Origin: Bacteroidetes bacterium QS_9_68_14
Lineage (GTDB): Bacteria; Bacteroidota; Rhodothermia; Rhodothermales; Salinibacteraceae
Length of the DNA: 64,000 bases
Assembly (NCBI GenBank): GCA_003022535.1
Contig: PXTT01000039.1
Coordinates: forward strand, 948-64,947
Reading direction: 5' to 3'
The position numbers were made by a program, and so were the translations under genes. A model generated the notes under the pieces. It did no database searches, was not told the DNA's origin, and worked only from the letters and a program-made list of their open reading frames with translations. Positions 59,379-60,567 of the stretch are shown here, in pieces; within the stretch, counting starts at the first letter, position 1; every line of letters starts with the position of its first letter.

Positions 59379-60567
59379 ATGCCCGCCGCCGTCGAATCCG
59401 TTGCTGCGCGCGAGATCCTCGACAGCCGCGGCTTCCCAACCGTCGAAGTAGATGTCGTCACTGAGGCGGGCGTGCTGGGACGCGCGGCGGTCCCCAGCGG
59501 CGCCTCGACGGGCGAGCACGAGGCCGTCGAGCTGCGTCGACCACGCGCTCATCGCCCTTGACGACACTGACGACAAAAGCGGCCTCGGCGCCAACGCGCT
59601 CCTGGGCGTCTCGCTGGCGGCGGCGAAAGCTGGAGCCGCCACGCAGGGCGTGCCGCTCTACCGCTACCTCGGCGGCGCTCGGGCCCGCGCCATGCCCGTG
59701 CCGCTGATGAACATCCTCAACGGCGGGACGCACGCCAGCAATAGCGTGGACATGCAGGAGTTCATGGTCGTGCCCGCTGGCGCGCCGAGCTTCCGCGAGG
59801 CGCTGCGGATGGGGGCGGAGGTCTTCCACGCGCTCGAAGACGTGCTCGCGGGGCGTGGCCAGTCCACCGCCGTCGGCGACGAGGGCGGCTTCGCGCCGGA
59901 CCTGCGCTCCAACGACGAGGCCATCGAGGGCGTCCTGGAGGCCATCGGGCAGGCAGGATACGCGCCCGGCCGCGACGCCTTCGTGGCGCTCGACCCCGCT
60001 GCCGCCGAGATGTACGAGCCCAGCGAGGCGGGCGGCGACGGCGCGTACCATTTTTGGAAGAGCGATCCGGGCAACCCGCGTTCCTCGGCAGAGATGGTCG
60101 ATTTCTGGGTCGACTGGGTGCGCCAGTATCCCATCCTCTCGCTCGAGGACGCCCTCGACGAGGACGACTGGGCCGGCTGGCAAACGCTCACCGAAGAAGT
60201 GGGCGGCCAGACGCAGCTCGTGGGCGACGATCTCTTCGTCACCGATACCGAGCGCCTGCGCCGCGGCATCAAAGAGGGCGCCGGCAATGCGATTCTCGTC
60301 AAGCCCAACCAGATCGGCACGCTCACCGAGACGCTCGAGGCGGTCGCCTTAGCGCGCGAAAGCGGCTTCGGCGCGATTATCAGCCATCGCAGCGGGGAGA
60401 CGGAGGACACGACCATTGCCGACTTGGCGGTGGCCTGCGGGACCGGCCAGATCAAAACCGGCTCGGCCTCGCGCTCCGACCGTGTGGCCAAGTACAACCA
60501 GCTCTTGCGCATCGAGGAGCAGCTCGGCGGGGCAGCCACGTACCCTGGCGCCGACGCGTTCTTGTAG
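59379..60567 (+). pseudogene. eno: Enolase interrupted by an internal deletion and frameshift
   Basis: [53 protein letters not shown] runs in one frame and hits a stop at 59559-59561. From ~59536 the +1 frame continues [28 protein letters not shown]... to a normal enolase C-terminus. About 40-45 residues of the conserved DGDxxRYxGKGV region are missing. Confidence 0.8.

Follow-up and report, generated by a model that had tools for sequence, protein, structure and literature searches.

Bacterial enolase pairs an N-terminal domain (Enolase_N, PF03952) with a C-terminal TIM barrel (Enolase_C, PF00113), examples being the intact protein P0123 and entries from Salinibacter and Salisaeta. Both domains are matched by fragments at positions 59379-60567 of the window, by which we mean the whole 64,000-nucleotide stretch of DNA that was analysed, but the copy in the window differs from other bacterial enolases in lacking approximately Enolase_N positions 51-86 and in having a broken frame. 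The enolase orthologues of two genomes of the same genus, G001 and G002, share the gene order around these fragments and are 85-88% identical to them. Where genes decay naturally, the spectrum of lesions in the resulting pseudogenes is dominated by nonsense changes and by indels of 1-2 nt. In metagenome-assembled genomes (MAGs) that have not been curated, protein-coding sequences can be passed on incomplete or wrong through gaps and local assembly errors (Chen et al. 2020, Genome Res, PMC7111523). Local assembly errors are defined there by lack of perfect read support, and 13 of them are given for one 1.13-Mb genome (PMC7111523).

The window occupies positions 948-64947 of contig C39 in a MAG, G000, of 1,762,906 bases in 76 contigs, with a completeness of 56.16% and a contamination of 0.86%. 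The MAG has a G+C content of 68% and contains 2,232 Ns, none of them (0) inside the window. Runs containing the stretch carry the label halite metagenome, and the best holder among them has 0.92 of the sampled words; this run is probably the source sample and hence not independent. The host is most likely a Salinibacter-like bacterium from halite, and the gene an ordinary single-copy enolase (phosphopyruvate hydratase). Gene order on both sides of the enolase gene (eno) is collinear with contig C38 of G001 and contig C31 of G002, placing it in the orthologous position among the following neighbours.

57761-59071, forward strand: TPR-repeat protein with a signal-peptide-like start, the upstream neighbour of eno (ORF list, Pfam)
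59379-60567, forward strand: eno, interrupted
60685-60981, forward strand: septum formation initiator of the DivIC/FtsB type, the downstream neighbour of eno (Pfam PF04977, E 2.6e-14)
61072-62115, forward strand: ROK-family protein, a family of sugar kinases or regulators (Pfam PF00480, E 3.8e-54)

An uninterrupted open reading frame of about 425-435 amino acids is absent at the eno locus of the window, which reads as 53 codons, a frame shift and 343 codons.

59379-59537, forward strand: 5' fragment of eno, codons 1-53, from the ATG to the Arg codon at the junction, including the SGASTG stretch (translation)
59536-59537, forward strand: junction, lacking 113 nt (37 codons and 2 nt) that are found in relatives (DNA alignment with G001 and G002)
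59538-59561, forward strand: out-of-frame tail of the original frame, 7 codons and a TGA stop at 59559-59561 (translation)
59536-60567, forward strand: 3' fragment of eno in the +1 frame, 343 codons and a stop at 60565-60567, comprising the last part of the N-terminal domain and the entire TIM barrel (translation)
59452-60567, forward strand: longest ORF that a gene caller would give, 371 amino acids from an internal ATG, with 28 out-of-frame residues at its start and enolase from about residue 91 (ORF list)

In alignment with the orthologues of G001 and G002, the eno DNA shows a single gap of exactly 113 columns after base 59536, and pairwise alignment finds 113 nt missing at the junction with 0 nt of microhomology. 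Because 113 nt amount to 37 codons and 2 nt, the gene continues in the +1 frame beyond this point. The 113-nt gap is a true property of the deposited sequence. An earlier note on this DNA had proposed an enolase interrupted by an internal deletion with a +1 frame switch, and the translations, the Pfam matches and the 113-column gap agree with it, as does the TGA at 59559-59561, which stops the original frame after 7 out-of-frame codons exactly where the note had put it. Some of its figures need adjusting. The enolase N-terminus is normal as described (Enolase_N positions 1-50 of 131, E 4.5e-21), although it comprises 53 codons and not 52, and the deletion exists but measures 37 codons and 2 nt in the DNA alignments where 40-45 codons had been estimated. 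By the same measure the length to be restored at the junction, were the gap an artefact, is 113 nt and not about 130 nt, while the artefact outcome itself is favoured by the comparative evidence.

The part of the gene downstream of the junction had been called intact to the normal stop, and it is: the 343 codons of the 3' fragment match Enolase_N at 87-131 and Enolase_C at 3-292 of 296 (E 3.1e-119; 398 bits with a cut-off of 21.5). The C-terminal TIM-barrel domain is complete at the locus, and the 131-position N-terminal domain is incomplete, with only 1-50 and 87-131 matched and in different frames; a family search of the whole genome delimits these two matches as Enolase_N model positions 1-51 and 84-131, likewise in two frames. 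The stretches [33 protein letters not shown], which would carry the catalytic and metal-binding residues of the barrel, can each be read in the translation of the 3' fragment. The missing 37 residues are retained in all of the 114 aligned full-length enolase homologues (114/114). The segment lost from the window is flanked in G002 by an inverted repeat of 7 nt (GTCGAGC ... GCTCGAC; window 59526-59541; L004 about 1390-1510), and the window keeps a short palindrome-like remnant of this repeat at 59526-59541.

Among 20 relatives, 19 carry eno in an open frame of 429-539 amino acids, and the one genome with no eno match is 67% complete. A second enolase-like gene, of 46% identity, occurs in 1 of the 20. 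The earlier note had proposed a search for a second eno in the genome, and none was found in the 56%-complete MAG with PF00113, with PF03952 or by tblastn with the intact enolase P0123; nor was a stray copy of the missing eno segment found elsewhere in G000. With 44% of the genome missing, the absence of a second eno neither helps nor hurts the reading of the gap as an artefact.

The nearest named proteins to the window enolase come from Salinibacter, Salinivenus and Salisaeta, and the closest are 432-433 amino acids long. The best database match, P0003 (432 amino acids, 96% identical), falls in the same 90%-identity cluster as P0123, an intact enolase of 433 amino acids encoded on a 6,007-nt contig from another, independent assembly. 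P0123 is identical to the window fragments at 53 of 53 and 336 of 343 residues (389/396, about 98%), the junction codon accounting for one of the 7 differences. Window and P0123 have in common the Thr before the conserved His (GGTHA) and the Gly in the AIGQAGY stretch, residues that we read as lineage traits of a working gene. The Thr had been a candidate for a lost residue and was rejected, the intact P0123 having the same Thr. At invariant columns there is a single window-specific change.

60244-60246, forward strand: GAT, coding for Asp, within the GDDLFVT-x stretch; Asn stands at this column in 113 of 113 other homologues and likewise in P0123

This Asp could be a real polymorphism, a base error at low coverage or a sign of relaxed constraint. 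Outside the gap, judging from these alignments, eno appears essentially free of decay. At the DNA level, the near-identical intact allele was not found in a scan of metagenome contigs (80 loci, all at 66% identity or below), and among the 120 matches listed there was no short contig-end fragment of a near-identical enolase extending into the missing segment at more than 70% identity.

The lesion in eno has many counterparts in the same MAG. We compared 1.152 Mb of G001, in 81 pieces, with G000 in both directions, counting an ORF as orthologue-like if its best HSP had at least 70% identity over at least 100 amino acids, and scoring a lesion where two high-identity HSPs lay in different frames with 43-151 nt missing. 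With ORFs picked by a GC3 filter, some of which may be shadow frames, 23 of the 434 orthologue-like ORFs of G001 had a frame change with 43-151 nt missing in the DNA of G000, whereas the same lesion type was seen for 2 of 444 ORFs of G000 searched against the DNA of G001. This sister shares about 82% nucleotide identity with G000 and is a MAG too, and true between-species indels therefore inflate both counts. The first half-sample had given 11 of 238 in G000 against one locus, counted twice, among 249. Under identical treatment of the two genomes, the asymmetry of 23 to 2 is the robust part of the comparison. The lesion density comes to about 1 per 21 kb of compared coding sequence (23 over 158,639 aligned residues), and one of the 23 coincides with a 4-N run. 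Looser genome-wide counts using greedy ORFs, the GC3 list and loose tblastn flags (48/265 and 59/281) were discarded as noisy because stop-to-stop ORFs take in upstream sequence and shadow frames.

Ten other genes with lesions were checked and are unrelated: a GH3 hydrolase, MreC, an HHH-motif protein, a penicillin amidase, a GT1 glycosyltransferase, an M16 peptidase, a TRAM/U5 methyltransferase, another methyltransferase, a thioredoxin-TPR protein and an aldolase of the DeoC/LacD family. The lesion loci in G000, with contig and positions, are as follows.

C6:2254-3130, C8:10344-11418, C42:4373-6086, C43:2345-4743 and C65:25569-27724: lesion loci
C33:3634-4982, C72:31862-32601, C67:6458-7271 and C70:37305-39054: lesion loci continued, with 12 further loci besides (MreC, GT1 glycosyltransferase, M16 peptidase, penicillin amidase and others, over all of these loci)
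C40:4056-5103, outside the window: DeoC/LacD-family aldolase in two frames, about 86 nt missing, query residues 1-82 and 104-378

Two of these genes were followed through the 20 relatives. Sixteen of them match the aldolase over its full length, 3 have it cut or split by contig ends and 1 has no match; G000 alone has it in two frames on one contig. For the GT1 glycosyltransferase, 8 of the 20 relatives searched give a full-length match at orthologue level and one more, G010, has the gene split; in G000 it is split into residues 3-118 and 145-390, in two frames on one contig. G002 has two copies of the aldolase (G002:C38:2653-3777 and G002:C126:5289-6422), 95% and 91% identical to that of G001, which may reflect strain mixing in the bin, and in another relative, 99% complete, the aldolase match (G016:C11:147941-149026) contains one in-frame TGA.

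The missing segments have a characteristic size and phase. When blastn HSPs were chained over 731 kb of aligned sequence, with each site realigned and segments of at least 45 nt kept, 45 missing segments with a clean junction were found in G000 and 23 in G001. Their lengths modulo 3 were distributed 14/15/16 in G000 and 10/9/4 in G001, and with a strict definition of clean (at most 10 nt of other gaps within 200 nt) the counts were 19 in G000 (5/6/8) and 4 in G001 (3/0/1). The missing segments of G000 are without reading-frame preference, and 40 of the 45 are 45-156 nt long. Their G+C content is slightly above that of the flanks in 10 of 14 cases. The longest inverted-repeat match at 14 junctions averages 5.5, a slight enrichment over the 4.77 of controls (single-value SD 1.05); a hairpin-jump mechanism, to which this small enrichment over 14 junctions might point, is unproven. 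Direct-repeat slippage or k-mer collapse was considered and rejected: microhomology is 0-4 nt, mostly 0-1, at 25 of 26 half-sample sites and 7 nt at one, and direct repeats at 14 junctions are not enriched (5.07 versus 4.89 in controls). Smaller frame changes, with less than 40 nt of net difference, numbered 15; most of these fall at the start of an ORF, at an N-run or at the end of a contig, and about 3-4 may be genuine small mid-gene lesions. The spectrum in G000, with many losses of 45-155 nt, no frame preference and few small lesions, is unlike that of natural gene decay.

Runs of Ns in the same assembly suggest how such segments could go missing. G000 holds 18 N-runs of 4-302 nt, and their variable length implies that the assembly was scaffolded with estimated gap sizes; examples, by contig and position in G000, are the following.

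C4:10805-10928: N-run
C28:62201-62373: N-run
C41:8569-8795: N-run
C55:3020-3234: N-run
C65:14203-14250: N-run
C47:15915-15918: N-run

Both flanks could be aligned to G001 for 9 of the 18, and in 7 of these 9 testable cases the N-run falls 43-201 nt short of the matching distance in G001; the nine differences are +148, +111, +201, -10, +5, +43, +62, +138 and +96, with a median of +96 nt. Gap sizes in G000 appear to be underestimated. If N-runs are about 100 nt too short, then a true gap of about 100 nt would receive no Ns at all.

We consider it most likely, from the comparative sequence evidence, that the 113-nt gap in eno is a local assembly or scaffolding error. A short stretch between two contig ends would have failed to assemble, and the scaffolder, estimating a gap of zero or less, would have abutted the ends without Ns. 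With estimates about 100 nt short, the true gaps that received no Ns would be up to about 150 nt long, and the resulting joins would look just like the lesion in eno. We infer that the join is the work of the assembler and has no counterpart in actual DNA, the silent-join mechanism, with its loss of about 100 nt, being suggested by the shortfall of the N-runs. The gene would then most likely be intact in the organism and encode a normal enolase of about 433 amino acids. This argument leans on a scaffolding or gap-closing step, and the comparison behind it is with one sister MAG. Two points count against it: a de Bruijn assembler normally does not invent a 113-nt deletion without a repeat, and the Asp at 60244-60246, where 113 of 113 homologues have Asn, could hint at relaxed constraint.

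If the deletion were instead real in the strain or in a subpopulation, eno would be a fresh pseudogene, tolerated through a second enolase encoded in the 44% of the genome that did not assemble, or through community carbon entering on both sides of the metabolic block. Eno mutants of E. coli do grow when fed carbon sources from both sides of the block, the deposited sequence carries the lesion, and the run with 92% of the sampled words is probably its source and so not independent. The second enolase-like gene (46% identity) in 1 of 20 relatives and the window-specific change from Asn to Asp at an invariant column could be read in the same direction. We nevertheless regard a real deletion as unlikely. 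The MAG has one eno locus only, eno is intact in 19 of 20 relatives with the unmatched one 67% complete, an intact allele of the same species exists in another assembly (P0123), and the remainder of the gene appears free of decay. A real deletion in eno would also leave unexplained 22 other unrelated genes with the same lesion type and their frame-blind lengths.

A broader alternative is that all of the mid-size deletions are real and that the lineage is losing genes by deletions of 45-155 nt, for instance through a defect in repair or replication, with eno, the aldolase and mreC among the losses. This would accommodate 23 of 434 ORFs in G000 against 2 of 444 in the sister, as well as the slight enrichment of inverted repeats at 14 junctions (5.5 versus 4.77), but we hold it to be highly improbable. 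Nonsense changes and indels of 1-2 nt, typical of natural pseudogenes, are seen in at most a few cases, the joint loss of eno, mreC and the aldolase is implausible in a free-living rod, and the N-runs of the same assembly share the shortfall of about 100 nt, which points to the assembly process. We can practically set aside the idea that the 371-residue product starting at the ATG at 59452 works as a shortened enolase or has a moonlighting role: its ORF is open and its TIM-barrel domain complete, but Enolase_N 1-86 is absent, including the SGASTG stretch that presumably forms the loop closing over the active site and binding the second metal ion, its first 28 residues come from reading the normal N-terminus in the wrong frame, the segment it lacks is kept by 114 of 114 homologues, and a search of a 15-billion-protein collection found neither this exact protein of 371 amino acids nor any protein of such form.

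The lesion, then, is true of the deposited sequence but most likely not descriptive of the organism. The earlier note had considered recent inactivation of a sole enolase unlikely, and the evidence goes the same way in favouring an assembly artefact (lesions in 23/434 versus 2/444 ORFs; an intact allele about 98% identical). Its headline, that a normally essential gene is truly interrupted, was not supported and keeps a small probability. If the gap is an artefact, the finding is a quality warning, and apparent pseudogenes or missing motifs in G000, eno included, need read support. Extrapolation from the compared sample suggests that G000 would probably carry about 80 such silent joins, each dropping about 45-155 nt and breaking or shortening genes. 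If the deletion is true, a free-living bacterium without a working enolase would represent an unusual metabolic dependence, for which the evidence leaves little room; a Salinibacter-like strain in halite that has lost its only enolase, perhaps with other genes, and lives on carbon cross-fed by the endolithic community on both sides of the block seems to us improbable.

Compared with genuine internal-deletion pseudogenes, eno in the window is alike in having a frame-breaking internal deletion in an otherwise recognisable gene. It is unlike them in appearing free of further decay, in having an intact conspecific allele, and in that lesions like its own occur across the genome, within a narrow range of sizes and without regard to reading frame. 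Errors of uncurated MAGs offer a closer likeness, with some differences. Silent joins that drop about 100 nt are not described in the portion of Chen et al. (PMC7111523) drawn on here, and the case of G000 is known from comparison, where the errors treated there are defined by read support. The densities are 13 errors in 1.13 Mb in that genome and about 1 lesion per 21 kb in G000, which we would call a similar order. Like the uncurated MAGs treated in that portion of the paper, G000 is scaffolded, contains gaps of Ns, and carries wrong coding sequences at many unrelated loci, of which eno would be one.
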